Of a stretch of DNA of 64,000 nucleotides, positions 1 to 15,941 are shown piece by piece. Position numbers and translations under genes: made by a program. The DNA is from a candidate division FCPU426 bacterium. Its GTDB lineage: Bacteria; Oederibacteriota; Muellerivitia; Muellerivitales; Muellerivitaceae. A model generated the notes under the pieces. That model was not told the origin of the DNA, made no database searches, and saw only the letters and a list, made by a program, of their open reading frames with translations. Location of the stretch: positions 96,001 through 160,000 of the forward strand of contig CAWKAR010000025.1 of NCBI GenBank assembly GCA_963847625.1. The letters run 5' to 3'. Position 1 is the first letter of the stretch. The number at the start of each line of letters is the position of its first letter.

Positions 1-3000
1 TGACCTGGTAGCCCTGCTTTTTCGCCGTGAGCAGGAATTCGGAGACGTAATTGGACAAGTATTCCCCGCCGCCCTCCTCCTGGCCTGGCCAGAGCGCGAA
101 GTCCCCGTCGGACAACTGCATCTTGCCCAGGTCGTCAATGGCGTCCTGCACGTACATTTCCACCGCGTTGGCCCTTCCGCTGAAACGCCCCGTCAAAAGG
201 CCCATATCCTTGAAGAAAAGAAGAGGGAAAGCCTGTGAGGTCCTCTGCTCGGCACAGCCATAGGGGTAATGGATGAGGTAATCCATGCTCCCCAGGAACG
301 TCAACAAGGGGCTGGAAGAAACCGTCATGCGGACCTTTTGTCCTTGCCGGATGAAGCCGCCGGGAACCGACAGGACCTGGGTCCCGCCCGCCCCCAACTG
401 GCCGAAGCTGATTTGCGTCGTCAAGGGATTGCCGGGCCTCACCGCCAGCTCGGTTTCCACGTCGAAATCGTTTCCATCCTCATCCGTGGCGGTCACCTTG
501 AAATGCGCCACGCCAGCGTCCATTTGGGCCTTGGCGTGGAACAGGATCTGTTTTTGCCCCTCCTCGCCCAGGCTGATATCCTGTTTTTTCTCGCCGTCGA
601 CCGCGACGGGACCGCTGGCGGAGAGGCTGACCTTGATGCTCTGGGGTTTCTTCGTGTTGTTATAGACCAGGACCGGCATGTCAATGTGGTCCCCGGGCGC
701 GAGAAACCGGGGAAAGGACGGCTCCACCACCACCGGATCCGCCACCTTCACGTGGAAGGCGGAAGCCCCGAATTTATTCGCCTGCACTCCCAGGGCCATG
801 ACCCTTACTTCCCCGTGGAACTTGTCCGTCGGGAAGTGGTAGCTGACCTTCCCCTCCTTGTCCGCCGTCAGGATGCCGGAGAAGAGGGCGAAGGATTTCA
901 CCCGTTTGGCTTCGATGGGGTTCAAATGGCGGAATTGGAAGGATTCACCCTCGTCCCCGCCCACCGCGTCCTTGCGGTCCAGGTCGGGAAGGATGTCCTC
1001 GAACAAGCTCAAGGTGGAGGTCGTGAGGCCCCGCTTGCGGTAGAAATACTTGAAGGGGTCGGGCGTGGTGAAAGCGATGATCTGGAGGATTCCCTCGTCC
1101 ACCGCGGCCAGGACCACGCTGGCCCCCGGCGTGCCGGTGGACAGGTTCACGTCGATGCCGTCCTTGGACTTTACGGACTCGGGCGCTTCCCACTTGAAGT
1201 CGATCTCATGGCTGGTGGTGTCCATCGCCAGGGTCGCGATCCCGAAGGAAGCCATCGGCATGGTCCTTAATTCCTCATTGGGCTTGCGCACCAGGAGCCC
1301 CACCACGTAGGCGTTGGGCATGTAGGCGGTCTCGACCGGGGGAAGGCTCAGCACGTTGAGCCCCGCCGCAACCGGCACCGTCGAGGTGTAAAAAACCCTC
1401 TCCCGTTCGATGGAAAGGATCAGCCTTCCGGCGAAGGGCGCGCGCACTTCCAGCTTGGGGATCTCGCCGGACTGGTATTGGGTCTTGTCGAGGTTGAGGG
1501 ACAGCTTGTCCGGCTCGCCCAGGTCGGCGGATTCCTGCTGGTTCTCCTCTTTTTCCTCGGGTCCGGACACCGCCACCATGACGGAACTGCGCATGGACTC
1601 CTCGTTGCCCAGGTAGATGGTGTATTCCCCCGGCTTATCCGGCGTGAAGGTGTAGGAACCCTTTCCGTCCACGTTGACTTCTTTGCCGTCCACCACCTGC
1701 TCGTAATAGGCCGACTCGTAGCCGCGTCCGGACCATCCGCTCCGCCTGAAAATGGAATACCAGACTTTGCGCTTGACGAGAAGGATGGCTTTTTCCACCT
1801 TGGTCGGGTCGCCGTCCGGGGTGATGGCCACGTACTTGATGTGGACTTCCTTATTGGGGGCCGATTCCTTACCTTCCTCGCACTTGAGGCCCAGGTAATA
1901 GGGATAGCGGTGGACCCGGATGGCGGCGTTGGCGCCGACGGGCCTCCCCCCGGTGTCCAACACCTCGGCATAGACCTCAGCCTGGAGCATGGAAGGAGGA
2001 AGCATGGAGATGGGCACGGGTAATTGCACGTCAAAATTGCCCGCCGCGTCCGTCGACCCGTCCGGGACCTTCAAACTTTCGCCCGTGAACTGCCGGGTGG
2101 GGTCGGAAAAATGGTAGCTTTTCCATTTCTTGTCCGTGAATTCAATCGGGCTCAATTGGACGGCGGTTCGCACCTTCAGGCTCACGCCCGGCGCCCCGAA
2201 GAGCTGGCGCACCGCGACCCGGAAGGAGAGTTGCTCCCCGGGATTGGCGGTTTTCTTGGCGGGACGCACCTCGACCTTGATCTTGTTGGGGATGAATTCC
2301 TCCACCTTAATGGAGGTGGACGCCAGGTGGACCCCGTTCTCCAGTCCCAGCTCGACGTTCAGCATGCCGGTGGTGATGTCCTCCTTAATGGGAAAATTGA
2401 AGGTCGCCATGCCGTAGTCATGGAGTTTGGCGGTGAGTTTGGCCACCTGGTTCCCGTTTTCATCCTTGATGACGAGGTTCACGGGAAGGTCCTCGGGGAT
2501 ATCCAGGTCCGCCCGCCTCACGACCGCCGTGAAATTGGCCTTGTCCCCGGGGCGGTAAAGGCCCCGGTCCGAGGTCAGGAACGCGTCCCATCCGGTGGAT
2601 TGGAAAGGATCCCCGCTCACGTCGAAGCGCGATTGGTTCAAGGCCGGCTGGTCCAGGCGGAGGTAGGACCAATCGTCCCCCAATTGGGCCACGACGACAT
2701 AGGCGTTGAAATGGTAGGGGTTGTTCTTCCAGTCCTTGAACCAGACCCGTCCCTCGGGATCCGTTTCCTTTTCCTGGATGACCTGGTTAGTGTCGGAAAT
2801 CAGCTGTAATTTCACCCCAACCGCCGGGGTCAGCCTGGAGATGGAAAGCACCTGCACCAAAAGGTCGTCGCCCGAGTACTTCAGCATCATGCCCAGGTCG
2901 GTGCAAAGGAAGGAACGGGAGTCCCGTCCGCCGCCGTTGGCTCCGTTCAGGGAAACCACGAATAGCCCCTTATAAGGCTGGCTGTGCCATTGGCTGAAAT

Positions 3001-5836
3001 CCAGGTCCGTTTCCGTTTCCTGGTTGATCTGCCCTTCGTTCACCTTCACGTTTCCGCCCCAGACATGGGCGCCCAACCCCGCGGTCGAGCCAGAATCGGA
3101 CTGGTAGTTATTCTCGCTGGGTTCGTCCCCTTCACCCTCATCCTCGTCCTCTTCCTGTTGCCGCTGGAAATAAGCGCGGCGCTGGGGCCGGCGGTAAGAG
3201 TGCCGGTAGTAGTAGTTGGGGTAACTGCGCCAGTTCTTCAGGAAATCGACGATGTTGTTGCGGAACACTTTTTCGACGCCGACGGAATAATTGTCCAGGT
3301 TCATGGTTTTAACCGAGACAATCTTTTTTCCCTCCAGAGGGATCAACCGCCCGTTATCGCCGAAACGCACGTAGGGCTCGATATCTTCCAGACGGATATC
3401 CTGGTCGCTGGCATGCTCCAGGATTTCCCCGGAAATGGCGCGCAGGCCCTCCTTCACGTGGATTTTGTAGTTGATGTTGGGTTGGAAATCCGCTTTCAAG
3501 ACGGCGTAGCAATATTCCGTATCCACCTTGAAGGGAATCGCCGGTTCGATGGACACGTTGTTGCGCACTTGGGAGGAAGAAGCCGGAAGCGTGAACAGGA
3601 TGGAGATCAGCGTGTTTCCCGGAACATGGTGGAGCTTGATCCCCTCCACCAGCATCTTGGGCTTGGCGGGAAGGGTGATGGTGCTTTGGTACTTGTCGGC
3701 CAGGGGCTTCCCGCAATCCACGCAGGACAAGCCCGCCGCCACGGTTACCGTCAGGGTCTGGGGTTCGGTTTCACGCACCAGCCCCCCCGCCTTGAAGAAA
3801 AACCGCGTGGGAAGGGTTCCCTGTTCCAGCTCGTAGTTCAGGGAGCTTCCCGCCCGGGATACGGAAAGGCTCTGTTTGAGCAGGTTCATGTCCACCGGAT
3901 AGTTGAACTCGATCTCGCCCACCAGCTCTTTTTCCGTTCCCTTGATGAGGTCGTAGGTATAGAAAAGCCGGCTGGAAACCACCTTCATGGCTTCGGTCGA
4001 AAAAGTGGTATTGGAGCTTTTTTCCAGGAAAAATTGTTTCGAGGAAAGCTTACCCGAGACGTTCAAGTGCACCTGGTAAGTGGTGGCGGGTTTCAGGGGA
4101 GCCGCGGGGGTGAAAACCAGGGTCGTGGAATCCTCCAGGCGGCTGGTTCCGGGCAGGGGGGGTGTAATCTCGAACGCGGAGTCCAAGGCGCTGATGACTT
4201 GGACGTCCCCGGAGAATTTGGCCCGGATGACCGTATTGGCCGAGGTCACCATTCCCCGGGGGGTAAAACTGATGATATGGGTGGTGAAAGTATTATAGAT
4301 CAAAAGATAAATCAGCCAGGCCGCGGCCAGGCACGCCAATATTAGGGCGGCCTTCCGGGCCAGGGGTTTCTTGGATAACTTCAATACGCTTTCCCCGCCT
4401 TTGGCTCCTTTTTGCTTGAGGAATCGGGCCGCCTTCTGGAAAAAAGGGCTTTGCCGCAGAATTTTCCATTTGGAACGCCAATCCAGGTCCGGCAATCCGT
4501 CCTTCTTGGCGATTTTTTCCGAAATTCCATAAGACTCGTAAAGACGGGTCAGATAGATAATCAATACTTGCAGGGACCAAGCCGGGTTTCTTTTGAGGAG
4601 GGCGAAAGGGATGGGGAGAAGGGCGTAGAGCCAGATCCAAGCCCGGAGGTTGCGGTGCTTCGTTTCCCGCATCCTTTCCCAAAACACCAGGAACAGCCCG
4701 GAAAGGATGAGGTGCAGCGCCAGCATCCAATTGTTTCTCTCGAAAAAATAGGGGGAATAAAAAGGGTTCATGAGGAACGTCAACCCGCCTACGGTGTAAA
4801 AAGCGAGAGCGCGGATGAAGGTTTGGGGTAATTTCAGGATTTGGGATCGGACCTGGGCGGTTAAAACCGTCAGGACGAGGATAACCATCGGGATGATCAG
4901 GGAACCGGTCTGGTTTTGAATGTAAATAAATCCCAAGAGCGAACCCAGGCTCAGGAAAACTTCCTTCGCGTGGGGTTTCAGCCAGGGATTCCAGCCCCAG
5001 AGCAAACCCAAAACCAGGATTTGGAAGGGCCAGCCGAAATTACCATGGAAGAAGTAATAATATGGAAGCATCGGGACAACGGCGAAAAGCGATAGATAAA
5101 GCCGCCCCCGGGTGGCATTCGCTTCCTTCAACTTTTCCCACAAAAGAAAAACCAGGGCCGAGAGCAGGAAATGGTGGATCAGGACGACCGGACCCCACCC
5201 TTTAATGACCTGTTGAACCCCGCGGACCGTTTCAAAGATGGGAAGTTCCGGCCAGTAGCGGTAGATCCAGTCCGTGAAATAAAACAGGACAAAGGCTTTT
5301 AGGATTTCGGGGTCCCGGCGGAATAAGAACCGGCGCAGCAGGGGGGAGACGCCCCAGAAAATGATGGAAATCCAGTAAACGGGGGGAAGCCCCATGAGGC
5401 AAACCGCGAAGGCGGCCGCCGTGAATACCGGCGGAAGAATATTGGAGTGGAATTTTTCGAGCGCCCGGATTTTTTTCAAATCATCCCGGACCATCTCCCA
5501 TCCCAAAAGAATCGTGGAATACACCACCAGGGCCAGCGCCGTGATCCAGACAATCTTCAGGTGGGAGCTGCTCGTCGGGACCTTATCGAAAAATTTCGGG
5601 GTCAGAAAGGAAAAGATCATCATGAGGGAAAAACCCTCAACCGCCCGGAAAGGATACTTCAGGTAAATCTTGCGCAGGAGGCCGACCGCCATGAACAACG
5701 GCAGGAACAGCCACAAATTTTTATTTTGGATCAGGAGGACGGCATTGGGGTGGTTCATCCAATTGGGAATGATTGCGACAAGGGCGATTAGAACGGTGAT
5801 TCCAAACCAGGCGTTTAATATTTTCCTGGGAATCAT
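1..5836 (-). CDS. Alpha-2-macroglobulin family protein (thioester type) with in-frame N-terminal polytopic membrane domain; 3' end runs off the window
   Basis: Not in the ORF track (no stop in window). ATG at 5836 with GAGGTG RBS; about 15 hydrophobic segments to ~4290; then Ig-like/MG domains (LVFTPAAPLKPATTYQV; PRFLAPGD); thioester motif YPYGCAEQ (CAEQ at 245-256). Start, internal TTG at 4384 and CAEQ are all in one frame. The middle portion was spot-translated, not read codon by codon. Confidence 0.9.
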   Translation of the reverse strand, partial: MIPRKILNAWFGITVLIALVAIIPNWMNHPNAVLLIQNKNLWLFLPLFMAVGLLRKIYLKYPFRAVEGFSLMMIFSFLTPKFFDKVPTSSSHLKIVWITALALVVYSTILLGWEMVRDDLKKIRALEKFHSNILPPVFTAAAFAVCLMGLPPVYWISIIFWGVSPLLRRFLFRRDPEILKAFVLFYFTDWIYRYWPELPIFETVRGVQQVIKGWGPVVLIHHFLLSALVFLLWEKLKEANATRGRLYLSLFAVVPMLPYYYFFHGNFGWPFQILVLGLLWGWNPWLKPHAKEVFLSLGSLLGFIYIQNQTGSLIIPMVILVLTVLTAQVRSQILKLPQTFIRALAFYTVGGLTFLMNPFYSPYFFERNNWMLALHLILSGLFLVFWERMRETKHRNLRAWIWLYALLPIPFALLKRNPAWSLQVLIIYLTRLYESYGISEKIAKKDGLPDLDWRSKWKILRQSPFFQKAARFLKQKGAKGGESVLKLSKKPLARKAALILACLAAAWLIYLLIYNTFTTHIISFTPRGMVTSANTVIRAKFSGDVQVISALDSAFEITPPLPGTSRLEDSTTLVFTPAAPLKPATTYQVHLNVSGKLSSKQFFLEKSSNTTFSTEAMKVVSSRLFYTYDLIKGTEKELVGEIEFNYPVDMNLLKQSLSVSRAGSSLNYELEQGTLPTRFFFKAGGLVRETEPQTLTVTVAAGLSCVDCGKPLADKYQSTITLPAKPKMLVEGIKLHHVPGNTLISILFTLPASSSQVRNNVSIEPAIPFKVDTEYCYAVLKADFQPNINYKIHVKEGLRAISGEILEHASDQDIRLEDIEPYVRFGDNGRLIPLEGKKIVSVKTMNLDNYSVGVEKVFRNNIVDFLKNWRSYPNYYYRHSYRRPQRRAYFQRQQEEDEDEGEGDEPSENNYQSDSGSTAGLGAHVWGGNVKVNEGQINQETETDLDFSQWHSQPYKGLFVVSLNGANGGGRDSRSFLCTDLGMMLKYSGDDLLVQVLSISRLTPAVGVKLQLISDTNQVIQEKETDPEGRVWFKDWKNNPYHFNAYVVVAQLGDDWSYLRLDQPALNQSRFDVSGDPFQSTGWDAFLTSDRGLYRPGDKANFTAVVRRADLDIPEDLPVNLVIKDENGNQVAKLTAKLHDYGMATFNFPIKEDITTGMLNVELGLENGVHLASTSIKVEEFIPNKIKVEVRPAKKTANPGEQLSFRVAVRQLFGAPGVSLKVRTAVQLSPIEFTDKKWKSYHFSDPTRQFTGESLKVPDGSTDAAGNFDVQLPVPISMLPPSMLQAEVYAEVLDTGGRPVGANAAIRVHRYPYYLGLKCEEGKESAPNKEVHIKYVAITPDGDPTKVEKAILLVKRKVWYSIFRRSGWSGRGYESAYYEQVVDGKEVNVDGKGSYTFTPDKPGEYTIYLGNEESMRSSVMVAVSGPEEKEENQQESADLGEPDKLSLNLDKTQYQSGEIPKLEVRAPFAGRLILSIERERVFYTSTVPVAAGLNVLSLPPVETAYMPNAYVVGLLVRKPNEELRTMPMASFGIATLAMDTTSHEIDFKWEAPESVKSKDGIDVNLSTGTPGASVVLAAVDEGILQIIAFTTPDPFKYFYRKRGLTTSTLSLFEDILPDLDRKDAVGGDEGESFQFRHLNPIEAKRVKSFALFSGILTADKEGKVSYHFPTDKFHGEVRVMALGVQANKFGASAFHVKVADPVVVEPSFPRFLAPGDHIDMPVLVYNNTKKPQSIKVSLSASGPVAVDGEKKQDISLGEEGQKQILFHAKAQMDAGVAHFKVTATDEDGNDFDVETELAVRPGNPLTTQISFGQLGAGGTQVLSVPGGFIRQGQKVRMTVSSSPLLTFLGSMDYLIHYPYGCAEQRTSQAFPLLFFKDMGLLTGRFSGRANAVEMYVQDAIDDLGKMQLSDGDFALWPGQEEGGGEYLSNYVSEFLLTAKKQGYQV

Positions 5837-5880
5837 AAAGCACCTCGCGGAACGGACAAACCGGCTTATATAATAAAGAG

Positions 5881-7017
5881 ATGAAACAAAAATTGATTTT
5901 CTGCAACCTTGTCATTCTTCTTGTCCTGGCCTCTCGGGTAGGTCACGGCCAGGAAAAAAACGCGTTCCTTTCGGTTCGTATCCTTGAAAGACTAAAACTG
6001 CAGGAATTGGAGGTTCAGTCCCCCGCGAATCATGGCGTTTGGAACCGAATCAAATTAGCACCGGGCCAAATGTCCGTCAACGACAAAGCACAAAAAGAGG
6101 CCTCCTGGGGCTCTCCGGATTCAACCGTTAAAATAAGGGCTTTAAATTTAAGGCGAATTTATCCTGGGATGATCGTCATCACAACGCAGGCCGGGGAAAA
6201 GGGTCCGGAACTGCTCATTTTAAACCAGGTCTTCCTGGGGGATTACACGGCTTGTGTCACGGCCTTTGAATCCGGTTATGACCCTTCCCAGCCGGAATAC
6301 TTGAAGGCGCTGGCGGCCATCATCCGCGCTTACGCCTCCTCACACCGCAAACGTCACGACTCCTATGATCTCTGCGACCTCTCCCATTGCCAAGTTTACC
6401 AAGGGCTCCCAAGCCATTTCAGTTTTTGGAAGCAAATGGCGGACGCAGGCACGTCATTCAGGTTTCCTTCATCAATAGATCCGAAATCCATTTATTTCCA
6501 CCGCTGTTGCGGAGGTGTTTTGGAGTCAGCGGACCAACTCTGGGGGGGAGCGCCTTCCGCCAGCCGGACGGGTCCAGATGAGTGGGATGGCAAAACCCTC
6601 TGCCAGGACGATCCTCTATTCCAGTGGACTTCCTCGACGGAGGTAAAAAACGTCGAGTCCGTCCTGAGAACCATGGCCCGTCTCCCTTCAGCGGCTGTCT
6701 TGAGAACATTCAGGGTCGATAAAAAAACAACTCATGGGCGGAACAAGGTATTGTCGGCGCGATTCCAAATGCCGGAAGGGGGAACCAGGGAAATCCGCGA
6801 AAATGCCATCCATTTCGAATCCGAATTCGGGAAACACTATGGCTGGCGCGTCTTTCCTAGTGATTTGTTCGGGATCAAACGGGAAGATGATATTTTCAAA
6901 TTTACCGGTCGGGGTCTTGGCCACGGTGTAGGGCTTTGCCAGTCCGGCGCCTTGAAACTGGCCCAATTGGGGTGGACCTGGGAAAAAATTCTTAACTTCT
7001 ATTTTCCTTCAAGGTGA
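5881..7017 (+). CDS. SpoIID/LytB-domain protein (lytic transglycosylase-like), signal peptide
   Basis: Motifs EYLKALA..IRAY, YDLCDLSHCQVYQG, FHRCCGG, GRGLGHGVGLCQSGA, ILNFYFP. Confidence 0.9.
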   Translation: MKQKLIFCNLVILLVLASRVGHGQEKNAFLSVRILERLKLQELEVQSPANHGVWNRIKLAPGQMSVNDKAQKEASWGSPDSTVKIRALNLRRIYPGMIVITTQAGEKGPELLILNQVFLGDYTACVTAFESGYDPSQPEYLKALAAIIRAYASSHRKRHDSYDLCDLSHCQVYQGLPSHFSFWKQMADAGTSFRFPSSIDPKSIYFHRCCGGVLESADQLWGGAPSASRTGPDEWDGKTLCQDDPLFQWTSSTEVKNVESVLRTMARLPSAAVLRTFRVDKKTTHGRNKVLSARFQMPEGGTREIRENAIHFESEFGKHYGWRVFPSDLFGIKREDDIFKFTGRGLGHGVGLCQSGALKLAQLGWTWEKILNFYFPSR

Positions 7018-7080: not shown

Positions 7081-7661
7081 TCAGTCATTATTAGCCATTC
7101 TAATTTTTTTCTTCTCTTCCGCACGCCAGCGTTTGGAAACTTCCGCCTCGATGCCGACATGGTCGTAAACCCGGGCGATGACCGTATCCACAAGATCCTC
7201 AATGGTCTTGGGATTGCCGTAAAAGCTGGGAGTCGCCGGGATGACATGGGCGCCAGCCAGGGTGAGAAGTTCCATATTCTTGATTTGAATCAGGGATAGG
7301 GGTGTCTCCCGGGGAACCAATATCAGCTTACGGCGTTCTTTCAAGAACACCTCCCCAGAGCGGGTGATCAGGTTATCGGTAATGCCATGGGCCAGCTTCC
7401 CCAGGGTGGCGGTGGAGCAAGGAATGACCACCATGGCCTCAAATTTGTTGGAACCGCTGGCCGAGGGGGCTGTCAGGTCGTTTTCGCCCCATTCCCTCAC
7501 GTGGGGGGGAGGTTCAGCCCACCCTCATGGGACGCCACGATGCGGGCGGCGGAGGATACCACCGCGTGCACTTCCCAATCGTCATAGGGAAGGTGTTGGA
7601 AAAACCTTCTGGCATAGAGGGTCCCTGATGCGCCCGTCACCGCTACTAGGATCTTCTTCAT
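7081..7661 (-). CDS. ubiX: Flavin prenyltransferase UbiX, frameshifted as given (one base short in G7 tract 7503-7509)
   Basis: N-terminus MKKILVAVTGASGTLYA from ATG 7661; C-terminal part with ASGS, PCS, LKERRKLILVPRETP, PSFY in another frame. Confidence 0.9.
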
Positions 7662-7909
7662 GAACAAACCAGTCCCAATTTAGTTTTGTTTGGCCGTCAT
7701 TGTGCCAATCATCCAAAAAAATTATGGTAAGTATCCCTTTACAACAAGTAATAGCAAAAAGACATGGAACCGCCGATCAAACCCGATGGACGCCGATAAG
7801 TTTGAGAAAGCCTTAAACTATAGCCGTTATCGGCACGTGCGGAGCACGTCGGTCGTTATCTGCGGTAAATAAATTTCTTTACGTGTCGTGAAGGTATAGT
7901 CACCTTTTT

Positions 7910-10483: not shown

Positions 10484-11728
10484 TTATCGCACGAGCAGGA
10501 CTCTTTTTATTTTAGTGCCGAAGGGTTCCACGAGGTCAATGAGGTAAACCCCGCTGGCACAGGGGTCGCCATACTTGTTGGTCCCATCCCATTGGTACGA
10601 CTGGCTGATGGGAGCTTCGAGTTCTTCGGAAGCGAGCGTTTTAATGTGTTCGCCGGCCGAATTATAAATCCGCAAGTCGTAACTCCCTGGATACTGGGTA
10701 TATTCCACGAAAATGGAAACCGGATCCGAGGGATTGAAGGTGTTTTTGGACACGTAAAAGACGTCGGCGACGACAGGCGTAAGGGTGATGGTGGGAGTGG
10801 CGGTGGGCGTGGGAGTAATCGTAGGGGTGTTCGTGATCGTAAAGGTATTGGTGATCGTGGGGGTATTGGTAAGGGTGGGGGTGGGCGTGGGGGTGGGCGT
10901 CGGGGAGACCGTCGGAGTCATGGTCGGGGTTAAGGTAAAGGTCAACGTATTGGTGGGCGTGGGGGTGACCGTCGGGGTGTCCGTCGGAGGAAAGGTCGGG
11001 GTGACGGTCGGCGTATTGGTGGGGGTCCCTAACGCGGAACAAGAGTTTACGGTATAATTTTTGTATTCATTTTGGTTTGGCGAATTTAAATAGCCGCTCC
11101 TGATTCCAACGGCCCCGGTCGTAAAGGTGGAGTCCGTAACGTTAAATATCAGCTGGTTGCCGTTGCCGTTATTGAAGTTCAAGTAGCACATAAAATTAGT
11201 CCCGCAGCAAACGACTGTCATATGGACCCAGGTTCCGACGGTATAGGTTGGTGTTGACGCGGTGCTTATATAAGACCAACCGCTTGACGAGTGTTTCTCA
11301 AACTGCCACTGCCCATAGTTGATTTGAAACGAATAGAAATCCGCCCCGGTTTGGCCCTTGAAAATGATGCCGAAAATCCCGCCAACTTGCGCGGACATGA
11401 CATCGCACTGGATGGTGTAGTCGGTCAACGCGGGGTTGAAATTCGCGGGGGTCACCAAGAATTGTTCGGCACAGTAGGTGGGATTGGCCGTATTGAGCAA
11501 AATCCCGCCCGAGGCGCTGAAGTAATTCGTGTAATTCGGGTCCGGAGTCCCCGGGTCGCCGTAATAAAAATTGTAATTGGAGAGGCTGGCATTCGAGGAA
11601 TAGTTATCCTGGAAAAGAACCCCCCCGAGGCTTGGGCAACAACCCTGGCCATAAGCCAAACCGGAGGATCCCGCGAAAATAAGGGCGAATAAAACAGGAA
11701 AAGAGAGATGTTTACAGATAGTTTTCAT
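10484..11728 (-). CDS. Secreted protein: lectin-like beta-sandwich domain, Thr/Pro linker, FlgD-Ig/T9SS-CTD-like C-terminal domain
   Basis: Signal peptide (..SSGLAYG/Q); TPT-rich linker; C-terminal LRIYNSAGEHIKTL..WDGTNKYG..ASGVYL..IKRVLLVR. Confidence 0.8.
   Translation of the reverse strand: MKTICKHLSFPVLFALIFAGSSGLAYGQGCCPSLGGVLFQDNYSSNASLSNYNFYYGDPGTPDPNYTNYFSASGGILLNTANPTYCAEQFLVTPANFNPALTDYTIQCDVMSAQVGGIFGIIFKGQTGADFYSFQINYGQWQFEKHSSSGWSYISTASTPTYTVGTWVHMTVVCCGTNFMCYLNFNNGNGNQLIFNVTDSTFTTGAVGIRSGYLNSPNQNEYKNYTVNSCSALGTPTNTPTVTPTFPPTDTPTVTPTPTNTLTFTLTPTMTPTVSPTPTPTPTPTLTNTPTITNTFTITNTPTITPTPTATPTITLTPVVADVFYVSKNTFNPSDPVSIFVEYTQYPGSYDLRIYNSAGEHIKTLASEELEAPISQSYQWDGTNKYGDPCASGVYLIDLVEPFGTKIKRVLLVR
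10785..11030 (-). repeat. Thr/Pro-rich low-complexity linker (TPT repeats)
   Basis: TPTNTPTVTPTFPPTDTPTVTPTPT... in translation. Confidence 0.85.
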
Positions 11729-12046
11729 TGTTTTTCTTTATCAACCTCATCCATATATATTAATTTAGCCAGATTACCGCCAGACCATTATCAATAATTA
11801 TATCGCCCTTTCACTGGACACTGGGCTGGATTTTGCGAAACCAGCGTGAGCCATCAGTCAACCACTAATTGTTATCAGCTGATTTATTTTTGCGGGAATG
11901 GCTTGAGAAAGGGGATTCCGGCCGGCGAGGAGGATATGGATGGGGTATAGGCTACCCAGCCTGGTCCGGACACCAGTTTTTAATTCCCTTCCCCGGAAAC
12001 CATCACAACCAAATTCCCCTCGTATCTTGAAATCTGCTTTCAGTCA

Positions 12047-15000
12047 TCATTTTAAAACCAATAGCTTGAAGATTTTTCGCTCAAAGTTAATGTCAACCAC
12101 GACGTAATAAAGTCCGTTGGCCAGCGGCATCCCCCAGAAGTCCTTCAGTTCGACAGGCAATTGATAAATCCCGGGTGGCAACTGGGAAAATGAATTTTCA
12201 TTCACTTTGCGGAAAACCGTGGTAAAAATTTTCAGGCTCACTTGGTTGACCAGATCATTTAACGCGAATTGCAGGGTCACAGGTTCCGGACCCCTGGCGG
12301 GGTCGGGATAGAGAATGGTTTTCACTATTGGGGTGGCCGTGACCGTGGGTGAGTAGGTGGAGGTCGATGTCGGCGTAAAACTCGCGGTGAATGTCGCGGA
12401 AGGCGTCATCGAATTTGTCGGCGAAGAAGTAATGGTATAGGTGCTTGTCGGAGTGCTGGAATAAGTGGCCGTTGGGGTTTCGGTGACAGTGGGGGTCGGG
12501 GTCGGGGTATCCGTGGGTAAGGGTGTTGTGGTTGAGATCGGGGCGTCTATTATTTGGGTTTTAGTGGAAGTGGGTGTTCCGGTCGAAGTGAAAGTGGGAG
12601 TGGAGGTCGCGGTTGGCATGCCGATAGTGGTGTTGGTGGGTGTGGGGGTAACGGTGGGGCTGAGGGTGGATGTGGGTGTCGGTGTGGGAGTGTTAGTGAT
12701 GACATCGATGCATGTGTATACGTGATAGTTTCGGATATGCGCCATGTTGGGGTCCAATAAAAACTCGGTCCGGAACCCCACACCGCCTGAAGTGTACGGC
12801 GGCGAAGCCGTCGTGTCGGTCAAGCTGTAAACCAATTGATCGCCGTTTCCATCGTACAGGTTCACATAGCAATAAAAGGTCGAGCCGGCAACCACCACCT
12901 TCAGGTGGACCCAATTGCCCGGCGTGTAAACCGGCGCGGCAAGCCCCGTGCCGAAGCCGGCGGGCGGCAGGTAGGTAAAGGCGCTTCCCCCCGCCCCGGT
13001 ATCCTTCTGGATCTGCCAATGCGGGTTTGCCCCGTTCTCCGAGTTTCCATTCCATTGAAAGATATAGCCTGTCACGTTGGCCTGTTCCAGGAATTCCAAG
13101 CCAAAAAGGCCGTAATTGTCCGTCCGATGGTCCAGTTTGAAATCCGCTTCCACCGTGTAATTGCTGTAAGCCCAGCTAAACTGCGCGGCATTCAATTGGA
13201 CGTAGGAATGAAGCGTAGCGCCGGCGGAAGAGGATTGCTGCAATTCGCCGCCATTGACCGCGTAATTCAGGGAGGCCGCGGTCATGGAGACGGCGCTGCC
13301 CAAAGTGTAAAAAGTGTAATTCGAAAGGCTGGCGCTGCTGGGGAAAGTGTCAAGGAACTCCACTAGTTGCTGGTTTGAGCCGCAAACAATCGCGGGTGTA
13401 TTCGTGGGGGTCAGGTAAATTCCAGTCGGCGTTATGGTTGGGGTGCAGGTGCTGGTGGGGGTGGAAGTCGGCGTGGGGGGAACGCAGGAAATACTCAATG
13501 AGACATTGTCGAAAGTGGCGCTGGCCAGGGAATGAACGCCGGCGCTGGACACGGCGAATCCCACCGGGGGGTTGGCGCCGATGGTGGTGAGGGTGACCGC
13601 TCCCACCTGGGTCCAGGTCGACCCGTTGACGGATTCATAACCCGTATAGATGTTTCCCGAGCGCTGGAGTTGGAACCAAACCGGGGCCGGCGGATTGGGC
13701 CCGCCGAACGACGTCGTGTTGCCGCCCTGGGTGGAGCGGTAGGCGAAAACCGCCTGGGCCCCGTTATAAGCCATGCCCAGGTAAACGTAAGGGGAGTCAT
13801 CCGCGGAATTGTCCCGGAACATGAGTCCGGCCTGGTTGTTCGAACTACCGTTTTGGATACCGGTCAAACGCGCCGTCAAGGTGCTGTACCCGCAGGAAGG
13901 CTGGCTCACGAACTGGAAGGAATCCTGCTCGATACCGCTTAAATTCATGCCGATGCCGAACCCCGCCCCGTTTACCGTGAAGGTTCCGCCGGAATAACTG
14001 CTGCTTCCCAAAAGACGCATGTACTTCAATTCCAAGGGTGTGGCCGTAGTTTGCATGAGCCAGCCGATGTCCTGGTCCACCCATGGGGAAGGCAGGGTGG
14101 AATTTACGTAGATGCTGATGGGGCAGGAAAACTGGGCCGTTCCCAGCTTGTTGATGGCGTGGGCGGTAATGAAATGGCTGCCCGACGGGACTAGGGGCCA
14201 GTTGATGTCATAGGGGGAGGAGGTGGAGGTTCCAAGGAATTGGCTGTCCACGAAAAAATCCACTTGGGCTATGCCGGCCGTGGAAGCCGCCGAGGCAGTC
14301 AACGCGAGGGTGAGGGGGCCGGTCATGACCGATCCATCCGGGGGGCTGGTCAGGCTCACCGTGGGCACGTCCAGTCCCGAAGCCGGCGGAACGGAAGCGG
14401 CCATAGGAGGCGCGGTTTGGTTGATGGTGCGGGCGTTGTCCTCGGTGTTGGCCACTCCCGTGGCCACGCCCAGGTAAGTCTCAAGGGGGGTGGAGAAATA
14501 GGGGGTATAAACCCCGGGCGCATAGGCCATGATGGTTCGGTATTGGACGCCTTGGGAGGTATAGCGGTTGCCCGCAGAGTAGGAATAAACACCCGGTCCG
14601 CCGTTTGCGAAATCGTGGCCGCACCCAAGGTTGTGTCCCATTTCGTGGATCATCGCCTCGGCGAAAATCACGTGTTCCATGCTGTAATGGCCCGGCAAAA
14701 AACCAAGGCCCATGACCGGGTCCGATCCCGCCACCAGCATGTTCACCATGACCGCCCCATAAGAACTTTGTATGGCCTGGATAGCGGAAATGGTTCCGTT
14801 CCCCATGTTGGGCAGGTCGGTGAACATGCTTCCCTGTTCGGTGTAATTGACCTGGCCGGAGTAAACCAACTGCATCTGCGCGTTGATGCCGCTGTTGAAG
14901 TAGACCATGTTGTTGTAGAAAACGACCGTATCGATGAGGGATTCCATGGCTTGAGCGCTGCCCATGACACCCAACGCCGCGGGGGTGTAAACCACGGCCA

Positions 15001-15616
15001 GGTTCAACACGGTCGGGTTCAGGGCGTAATGACAGCCGGCTGGATAGTTGAGGGGTATAAGCCAGGGCATGCCTTCCTGGGGGAAGCCGGCCGCTAACCG
15101 GGAGTCTGAAAGCCCCGGATGGGAACCGTCCAGGCCGCACTGGAGGCCTTTTTCCTCGTCCACCTCCATGATCCGGTGAAGTCCGTTTCCCGCGGGGAGG
15201 ATTTTAAAAGTCCCCTTCCCCGGGATGAAAAAGATGCCGGTCATGATTCCATCGGCGTGGGTGACCACGCCCATGCTACCCGTCACCTCCTTGAATTGGC
15301 CGGTATAAACCGTCCTGCCATGGGGCCTTTTCTCGGCGTGCCCCAAGACAAGGGTGTAATCGGCATCGTCAAAAAGATTCATGTGAAGTTGTGGCTGGGC
15401 GCCCGGATGGAAACGCTCCGGATGGATTGATTCCAGGAATTCCTTGTGGAATTTCACGAACCGGTCGCGTTTAACGAAGGATTCCGCCCGGTAGGTGGCG
15501 GGCCGGGGGGCTTCTTCAAAGACTTTCGGGCCATCGGCGGCTTGTGCGAGGAACCTGGATAGGAAAAAACTTCCGGCCAACACCGCGACGGATAGGATTC
15601 GTTGGATATATTTCAT
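12047..15616 (-). CDS. Secreted multidomain metzincin (M12B/reprolysin-like) metallopeptidase with Ig-like domain, two lectin-like domains, Thr/Pro linker and FlgD-Ig/T9SS-CTD-like C-terminal domain
   Basis: HEMGHNLGCGHD zinc motif, Met-turn RTIMAY, propeptide Cys (LQCG); PTVSLTSPPDG Ig domain; C-terminal YPDP..KIFTTVFRKV..LANGLYY..KLLVLK; start taken at MKYIQRIL (signal peptide). Confidence 0.88.
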   Translation of the reverse strand: MKYIQRILSVAVLAGSFFLSRFLAQAADGPKVFEEAPRPATYRAESFVKRDRFVKFHKEFLESIHPERFHPGAQPQLHMNLFDDADYTLVLGHAEKRPHGRTVYTGQFKEVTGSMGVVTHADGIMTGIFFIPGKGTFKILPAGNGLHRIMEVDEEKGLQCGLDGSHPGLSDSRLAAGFPQEGMPWLIPLNYPAGCHYALNPTVLNLAVVYTPAALGVMGSAQAMESLIDTVVFYNNMVYFNSGINAQMQLVYSGQVNYTEQGSMFTDLPNMGNGTISAIQAIQSSYGAVMVNMLVAGSDPVMGLGFLPGHYSMEHVIFAEAMIHEMGHNLGCGHDFANGGPGVYSYSAGNRYTSQGVQYRTIMAYAPGVYTPYFSTPLETYLGVATGVANTEDNARTINQTAPPMAASVPPASGLDVPTVSLTSPPDGSVMTGPLTLALTASAASTAGIAQVDFFVDSQFLGTSTSSPYDINWPLVPSGSHFITAHAINKLGTAQFSCPISIYVNSTLPSPWVDQDIGWLMQTTATPLELKYMRLLGSSSYSGGTFTVNGAGFGIGMNLSGIEQDSFQFVSQPSCGYSTLTARLTGIQNGSSNNQAGLMFRDNSADDSPYVYLGMAYNGAQAVFAYRSTQGGNTTSFGGPNPPAPVWFQLQRSGNIYTGYESVNGSTWTQVGAVTLTTIGANPPVGFAVSSAGVHSLASATFDNVSLSISCVPPTPTSTPTSTCTPTITPTGIYLTPTNTPAIVCGSNQQLVEFLDTFPSSASLSNYTFYTLGSAVSMTAASLNYAVNGGELQQSSSAGATLHSYVQLNAAQFSWAYSNYTVEADFKLDHRTDNYGLFGLEFLEQANVTGYIFQWNGNSENGANPHWQIQKDTGAGGSAFTYLPPAGFGTGLAAPVYTPGNWVHLKVVVAGSTFYCYVNLYDGNGDQLVYSLTDTTASPPYTSGGVGFRTEFLLDPNMAHIRNYHVYTCIDVITNTPTPTPTSTLSPTVTPTPTNTTIGMPTATSTPTFTSTGTPTSTKTQIIDAPISTTTPLPTDTPTPTPTVTETPTATYSSTPTSTYTITSSPTNSMTPSATFTASFTPTSTSTYSPTVTATPIVKTILYPDPARGPEPVTLQFALNDLVNQVSLKIFTTVFRKVNENSFSQLPPGIYQLPVELKDFWGMPLANGLYYVVVDINFERKIFKLLVLK
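12330..12700 (-). repeat. Thr/Pro/Ser-rich low-complexity linker
   Basis: About 120 aa of TPT/STPT repeats in translation. Confidence 0.85.
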
Positions 15617-15941
15617 CGACTCACCAATCGATCGGATGAAAAATTGAAACCTCTGAAAAACTAAAATAAAGCGGCAAACAGAGGTTTCGACCCCAAAGAT
15701 TTCCGCAGGAAATTGTGGGGTTACCTTCAATGGTTGCTGAAAAAGTTGGCGATAAGCCGACTTTTTCAGAGGTTACAAATTAATAATTTCCGAGCCGCTT
15801 TTCAAAATGACTCATAATATAGTGTCTAGCTGATAAACGTCAGATCATCGCTAACCGTTAAAAACGTCACATCATTGATGACTGCCTCTTTAGAAGGAGT
15901 AAAAATTATACTCATGAACATCTCTTGAAAGGGAGGTATTC

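Follow-up and report, generated by a model that had tools for sequence, protein, structure and literature searches.

Gene content of the locus

The window, that is, the whole stretch of DNA analysed here, comprises 64,000 nucleotides (positions 96,001 to 160,000 of contig CAWKAR010000025.1, assembly GCA_963847625.1) of a candidate division FCPU426 bacterium, designated G000 below. A minus-strand reading frame is open from the ATG at 5836 to the window edge (1945 aa) and terminates in the assembly at 1987 aa, beyond the window. The first-pass annotation had proposed that one frame runs from this ATG through hydrophobic segments, a linker and a transmembrane helix into an alpha-2-macroglobulin (A2M) with a thioester; the frame is stop-free over this course, in agreement with relatives, Pfam matches and the GCAEQ motif. 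Domains of the A2M body were the sole Pfam matches, all from aa 521 onward, and aa 1-512 gave zero Pfam matches at E ≤ 0.1 and no NCBIfam match either. The features of the locus are the following.

2..5836, minus strand: fused membrane-repeat alpha-2-macroglobulin ORF, extending past the window edge; 2328 aa in the relative G001 (ORF and relatives)
5841..5846, minus strand: Shine-Dalgarno-like GAGGTG, 4 nt ahead of ATG 5836 (sequence)
5477..5836, minus strand: membrane module copy 1, aa 1-120, predicted helices a-d; Arg55 ends helix b and WE ends helix d (profile and AlphaFold model)
5117..5476, minus strand: membrane module copy 2, aa ~121-240 (profile)
4991..5110, minus strand: extra helical hairpin e-f behind copy 2, aa 243-282 (predicted transmembrane)
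4661..4978, minus strand: membrane module copy 3, aa 287-392 (profile)
4535..4651, minus strand: extra helical hairpin e-f behind copy 3, aa 396-434 (predicted transmembrane)
4352..4534, minus strand: basic amphipathic linker, aa 435-495, 61 aa with 17 K/R, assigned to the cytoplasm; contains the non-conserved TTG 4384 (sequence and topology assignment)
4295..4351, minus strand: signal-anchor helix, aa 496-514, without lipobox, placing the A2M body outside (hydropathy and topology assignment)
4055..4276, minus strand: first Ig-like domain (Pfam Big_5), aa 521-594 (Pfam)
1934..2902, minus strand: bMG3, MG2 and bMG5 macroglobulin domains, aa 979-1301 (Pfam)
1079..1504, minus strand: A2M bait-region domain (Pfam A2M_BRD), aa 1445-1586 (Pfam)
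623..889, minus strand: Pfam A2M domain, aa 1650-1738 (Pfam)
245..259, minus strand: thioester motif GCAEQ, aa 1860-1864, with YPY directly before it (motif)
5881..7017, plus strand: divergent SpoIID/LytB-family gene (spoIID), 44 nt from the A2M start (ORF and family match)

A purine-rich motif comparable to GAGGTG stands ahead of the A2M start in G001, G022, G025 and the metagenome locus L022. The 44-nt gap between A2M and spoIID (window 5837-5880) contains, about 7 nt ahead of the spoIID ATG, a -10-like AT-rich box, and the gap measures 42-45 nt in G001, G022 and G024; spoIID may be leaderless.

The membrane domain and the A2M form one conserved protein

The annotation had also warned that a spurious base between 4384 and 4547 might join what are really two translationally coupled genes, the second starting at TTG 4384. 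We searched 60 relatives with aa 1-512. Matches were found in 7 of the 30 same-family genomes and in 0 of the 30 outside the family; every match was stop-free, and in all seven matching relatives the domain was fused to A2M. Complete fused proteins of 2132-2328 aa are encoded by G001, G022, G024, G025 and G004, the contig fragments G015 and G007 span the linker without a stop, and L022 (2284 aa) provides an eighth stop-free linker. With the A2M body alone as query, the same 7 relatives were recovered in the family (64-91% identity), again with the fusion in 7/7. Compared with G001, the linker shows two indels and no others, +2 and +1 bases at a distance of six nucleotides; together they make one codon and leave the frame unchanged. 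The TTG 4384 start codon is not conserved, its column reading GTG, GTC, AGC, GTC, GTC and GCC in six relatives. Other frameshifts do exist on this contig, which speaks for an assembly artefact, but a linker read through in eight independent assemblies refutes the split and leaves such an artefact a negligible probability. The fusion of the N-terminal domain to A2M is real and conserved. The dN/dS ratio between G000 and G001 was 0.16 for aa 1-517 versus 0.08 for the body, and in a second pair 0.165 for the N-terminal part versus 0.115 for the body, values that point to purifying selection on the N-terminal domain.

The N-terminal region is a repeated four-helix membrane module

The N-terminal part consists of three four-helix units of about 120 aa (aa 1-120, 121-240 and 287-392), two hairpins, the linker and the anchor helix. 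A 19-residue hydropathy scan gave 11 strong segments; together with weaker helices of the AlphaFold models, our assignment is 16 helices and one anchor. The earlier description of a polytopic domain thus stands, with its count of about 15 plus one revised to 17. In a profile built from 23 units of other families only, copies 1-3 scored 26.0, 18.6 and 17.3 bits, against 10.6 for the best of 2000 shuffles, and the same profile placed 18 of 27 held-out units above all 2000 shuffles. Profiles from one or two own-family copies were weaker (0/34, 18/41 and 8/41; with copies 2 and 3 together, 0/34 held-out units exceeded the best shuffle). These scores show that the internal repeat is real. The second unit of the two-copy G004 protein resembles our copies 2 and 3 to nearly the same degree (scores 100 and 98), and this near-equality fits the duplication of one six-helix block.

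AlphaFold predicted an all-helical N-terminal region (pLDDT 75.5, pTM 0.55) and, for copy 1 alone, a four-helix bundle (pLDDT 80.5, pTM 0.70). The 17-pass assignment puts 39 K+R inside versus 7 outside, with the A2M body outside, periplasmic loops of 2-19 aa and repeats that are parallel, not inverted, in topology. We found no lipobox in aa 1-560 and no cytoplasmic output domain, the longest inside segment being the 61-aa basic linker. No conserved charged residue lies inside the membrane, and no intramembrane charged column is common to the units. An Arg at the end of helix b and a Glu (counting Asp) at the end of helix d are near-invariant, at 42/43 units each, a conservation partly built in since these residues were used to cut out the units; like the basic linker, both face the cytoplasm in the 17-pass assignment. 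A His in helix d of copies 2 and 3 is conserved within the family and not kept outside it.

The searches placed the module in no described family, and the fold comparisons mark it neither as a new fold nor as a known one. At most 3/43 units share any Pfam or NCBIfam family, all weakly (2/19 for the spirochaete units described below), a PDB sequence search with the unit profile gave a best E of 0.61, and Foldseek returned no match at E ≤ 0.001 for either model. The VIA fold matches were generic helical bundles (Z 8.6 for 6j72, rmsd 3.9 over 108 aligned; Z 7.5 for 4k12, rmsd 4.0 over 81 aligned). One unnamed match at 0.78 came from the ESM Atlas, and a second search there found none. A weak match to BacA (E 0.07, in 1/8) was put down to chance.

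The body belongs to Type I bacterial A2Ms

The body carries YPYGCAEQ at aa 1857-1864, that is, the CxEQ thioester with flanking tyrosines, and CxEQ is present in 19/19 and 21/21 full A2M ORFs of two locus sets that have three loci in common. bMG3, MG2, bMG5, A2M_BRD and A2M all score above their Pfam cut-offs; bMG10 is in frame in G001 and G004 and lies in a frameshifted piece in the source assembly. RDDR and ExMY, described in the accessible part of PMC4498604 as C-terminal-domain motifs of Type I A2Ms, were read in the ORF at 10854-11885 of locus L001 (source contig) and in the protein P0003. With the thioester, the bait region, RDDR/ExMY and the adjacent pbpC, the protein can be classed by its sequence as a Type I bacterial A2M. 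The marks of Type II (MagD) differ from what lies here, where CxEQ is present and the neighbours are pbpC and spoIID.

The closest known structures are E. coli ECAM/YfhM (PDB 4rtd, 5a42, 4ziq) and Salmonella SaA2M (4u48), which match G001 aa 955-2312 at E 1e-92 to 6e-90 and share the CxEQ thioester, bait region, MG domains, RDDR and ExMY motifs and a downstream pbpC. ECAM has a signal peptide with a lipobox and is a monomer in solution, according to the accessible text of PMC3328433. Our protein, in contrast, lacks a lipobox, its body follows on 16 helices, a linker and an anchor helix, it has extra N-terminal Ig-like domains, and its gene is linked to spoIID. The first-pass annotation had given lipid or signal anchoring as the rule for bacterial A2Ms, which does not extend to MagD of P. 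aeruginosa: in the portion of PMC5764988 available, MagD, which has neither lipobox nor transmembrane helix, depends for its anchoring on the one-helix protein MagB. Our protein resembles the MagD/MagB pair, as described there, in that the A2M is kept at the inner membrane by a protein helix and not by its own lipid, and it differs in that MagD lacks CxEQ, belongs to a six-gene operon and has a separate one-helix partner, whereas here the anchor is fused and polytopic. In what could be consulted of PMC3328433, PMC4498604 and PMC5764988, bacterial A2Ms are held by a lipid or a one-helix partner, and their role together with PBP1c is still a hypothesis. No description of a polytopic A2M was found in the literature searched, which covered few subscription papers. 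An unnamed four-helix membrane repeat on a Type I A2M would be, as far as sequences tell, a third way of holding the trap, one that overturns nothing known.

Within the MG region, at about 3070-3240 of the window (minus strand, aa ~870-920), lies an insert that is Arg/Tyr-rich and then acidic. G001, G024 and G007 have it too, G025 and G004 have a shorter one, and G022 lacks it; it is possibly an extra protease-sensitive loop.

Distribution and copy number of the module

The A2M body was matched in 31 of 99 genomes of the host phylum, and 24 of the 99 have module-bearing A2Ms, with three copies in 5, two in 11, one in 6 and an uncounted number in 2 fragments. Beyond the close set, 22 loci divided into 14 with modules, 2 on a contig-end piece, 1 broken (G048) and 5 without; G048, with its module deleted and its gene frameshifted, was left out of the counts, and the N-termini of G008, G021 and the second G074 copy are not included. 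Comparison of G048 (L069:3720-4864) with the sister genome G070 suggests that its module is deleted together with the beginning of the divergent gene next to it, and its A2M is frameshifted, through decay or misassembly. The module-less A2Ms of the phylum (G010, G052, G082, G078 and G042) have the body, thioester and pbpC link seen here and no membrane module: G010, G052 and G082 have a single anchor, and G078 and G042 lipobox-like signals.

The module is seen almost only on A2Ms in the genomes searched. In the 99 genomes, all 44 unit-profile matches at E < 1e-6 fell in A2M genes or their contig-end pieces; 40 of these are training sequences and 4 are new, and 13 weak matches (E 0.001-0.009) in other ORFs were set aside. 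A profile search of 1.84 billion representatives gave 6 matches, all pieces of the module-A2M family. Besides the protein of the window itself, word-indexed searches gave P0011, P0010, P0004 and P0012. The longest contig given for P0011 is 4144 bp, as it is for P0012, whose end is out of frame; the two were taken as one frameshifted copy, with its break between units 1 and 2 rather than in the linker.

A module like this one was also seen in the spirochaete phylum, that of G099, in 14 of 401 genomes sampled. In this sample, 19/401 genomes had an A2M match, at 20 places: one module at 9, two at 5, none at 4, and G129 and G134 as the remaining 2. The layout is that of the host phylum, with a motif of its own. 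Alignment of the two modules with hhalign gave a probability of 48% and E 2e-4 over 42 columns, held-out spirochaete units scored above shuffles in 0/2 cases and N-termini in a separate test in 2/20, so that homology of the two modules is suggestive only. The spirochaete-module profile made 20 strong matches, namely its 19 training sequences and an ORF of G134. This 164-aa module-only ORF (L130:1480-1974, C34) stops 12 nt from the contig end; it could be a stand-alone form, and is the sole such candidate.

Trees of the A2M body were built as quick IQ-TREE and FastTree runs, and an AU test was done on 21 chosen rows, with groups named after an earlier tree had been seen. Module-bearing proteins fall in one well-supported group, with the module-less G082 inside it; in the first body tree, the half-filled, long-branched G205 was also inside. 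A single origin of the multi-copy forms was rejected (p-AU 1e-66), as was a module clade without G082 (p-AU 8e-24), and the copy-number label requires at least four changes on the tree. Copy number thus appears to have changed repeatedly, G082 representing a probable nested loss of the module, and part of the changes could be losses and not gains. The three-copy form with about 17 helices, the repeated change of copy number and the nested loss are new here.

Neighbouring genes

A pbpC gene, for which a look beyond the window had been recommended, is indeed present downstream (L001 7638-10007; TIGR02073, 658.6 bits versus a cut-off of 494.2). spoIID is divergent from A2M in 5/5 complete same-family relatives and in L022. 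Counted in fetched regions, several of which end at contig edges, the 29 module-bearing loci include 23 with pbpC and 19 with spoIID; for module-less loci the numbers are 4/8 and 1/8. In G070 and G079, pbpC lies further along the same contig. Because the module-less G082 keeps both pbpC and spoIID, the operon tracks the clade and not the module, and no neighbouring gene was found to track the module.

A model for the function of the module

By the positive-inside rule, this Type I A2M would be an integral inner-membrane protein, with its N-terminus inside, 17 passes and the trap in the periplasm. As in known Type I A2Ms, an intruding protease would cut the bait region and expose the thioester, which would bind the protease covalently, and PBP1c and the SpoIID-type lytic transglycosylase would then repair the wall. 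Periplasmic protease trapping is proposed because the body bears the Type I marks given in the accessible parts of PMC4498604, PMC3328433 and PMC5764988, together with its PDB matches. The least certain step concerns the module, for which we favour, with a probability of roughly 0.6, a non-catalytic, non-transporting anchor and scaffold. In favour of this reading are the variable number of copies, the nested loss, the short loops and the parallel topology, and also the absence of both an output domain and conserved intramembrane charge. The module would hold the trap in the membrane with no need of a lipid. A single helix suffices in G082, so plain anchoring leaves the retention and duplication of the module unexplained, and for this reason we infer lateral contacts: the helices would offer contact surfaces, to the module itself or to membrane neighbours, and extra copies would add grip or avidity. 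That pbpC and spoIID do not track the module counts against the anchor and scaffold reading. The suggestion of the first-pass annotation that the protein might couple protease capture to envelope repair holds for the operon, with its pbpC and spoIID, and not for the module, as module-less G082 keeps both genes.

A more specific version, which is conceivable although we would not expect it to hold, is that the module self-associates and brings otherwise monomeric A2Ms of the inner membrane together as multivalent clusters of traps. Such clusters would correspond in bacteria to the A2M dimers and tetramers of animals and might lie at wall-repair sites with PBP1c and SpoIID; tandem duplication would then fix within one chain what single-copy proteins do between chains. 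The natural 0-, 1-, 2- and 3-copy forms are a ready series for probing the role of the module, and also bear on whether A2M, PBP1c and the SpoIID-type lytic transglycosylase are one repair unit.

The frequent presence of pbpC and spoIID at module-bearing loci (23/29 and 19/29) would suit a module that is a dedicated dock for PBP1c or SpoIID and brings wall repair and protease capture together in one complex. In the available text of PMC3328433, A2M is proposed to touch PBP1c directly, but through the A2M C-terminus. Module-less loci still keep pbpC in 4/8 cases, several of the others being cut by contig ends, with both genes in G082; the modules of G311, G363 and G070 occur without spoIID in the fetched region; and the pbpC beside the gene stays single while the module number varies. 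We consider such a dock unlikely.

Improbable, too, is a sensor in which the large change of shape that follows cleavage of the bait is relayed across the membrane to a partner in the cytoplasm. The conserved Arg and Glu and the 61-aa basic amphipathic linker do face the cytoplasm, and activation shifts A2M domains by tens of angstroms (PMC4498604, in the part accessible). No output domain is present, however, several Ig and MG domains stand between trap and membrane, G082 has lost the module, and a by-eye reading of neighbour ORFs revealed no shared regulator.

A channel or transporter, or a protein that binds or flips a lipid carrier such as undecaprenyl phosphate, is a still poorer prospect. 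Sixteen helices with internal repeats are found in many transporters, the His of helix d in copies 2 and 3 is conserved within the family, and the neighbours use lipid II. Transporters, however, need a fixed architecture, into which a variable and losable repeat does not fit: copy number ranges from 0 to 3, the topology is parallel and not inverted, the units have no charged intramembrane column in common, the His is not retained outside the family, and no Pfam or NCBIfam family reaches more than 3/43 units, all weakly. The transmembrane signalling or transport that had been suggested is thus not supported, given copies of 0-3, no output domain and no conserved intramembrane charge.

Neutral baggage, an old tolerated fusion constrained only to fold in the membrane, would agree with the loss of the module in G082 and with its rate of evolution, about double that of the body, but it is very improbable for a module kept in two phyla and across A2M bodies only about 35% identical, for which there is one clear loss beside several changes of copy number.

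Frameshifts and other features of the contig

The indels reported elsewhere on this contig were confirmed, with frameshifts in the A2M C-terminus, ubiX and a ykuD-like neighbour; 6/6 other genes tested are intact. In A2M, one base is absent relative to G001 at gene position 5905, 68 nt beyond the window edge, which places the last 343 aa (bMG10) in another frame. If this break is real, the A2M copy of the source genome may be non-working. Between A2M and pbpC, L001:10254-10816 (G000 C25, just beyond the window edge) is AT-rich (36% GC) and contains a frameshifted gene that we take, from a motif, to be a ykuD-like L,D-transpeptidase; it is missing from the corresponding place in G001. ubiX (window 7081-7663, minus strand) is split by its frameshift, and a 77-bp copy of its 3' end, 87% identical, lies across the A2M-pbpC block at C25:90139-90215. 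Downstream of this block, two transposase-like ORFs and a recombinase-like remnant (labels by eye) occupy L001:2203-6144. At about 7716-7905 of the window lies one copy of a dispersed repeat, some 180 bp long, which also occurs on C24, C45 and at other places of C25 (77-98% identical) and may be a small mobile element. Further along the window, two secreted proteins (10484-11728 and 12047-15730, minus strand) have long Pro-Thr linkers and alike C-terminal tails, one of them with an HExxH motif.
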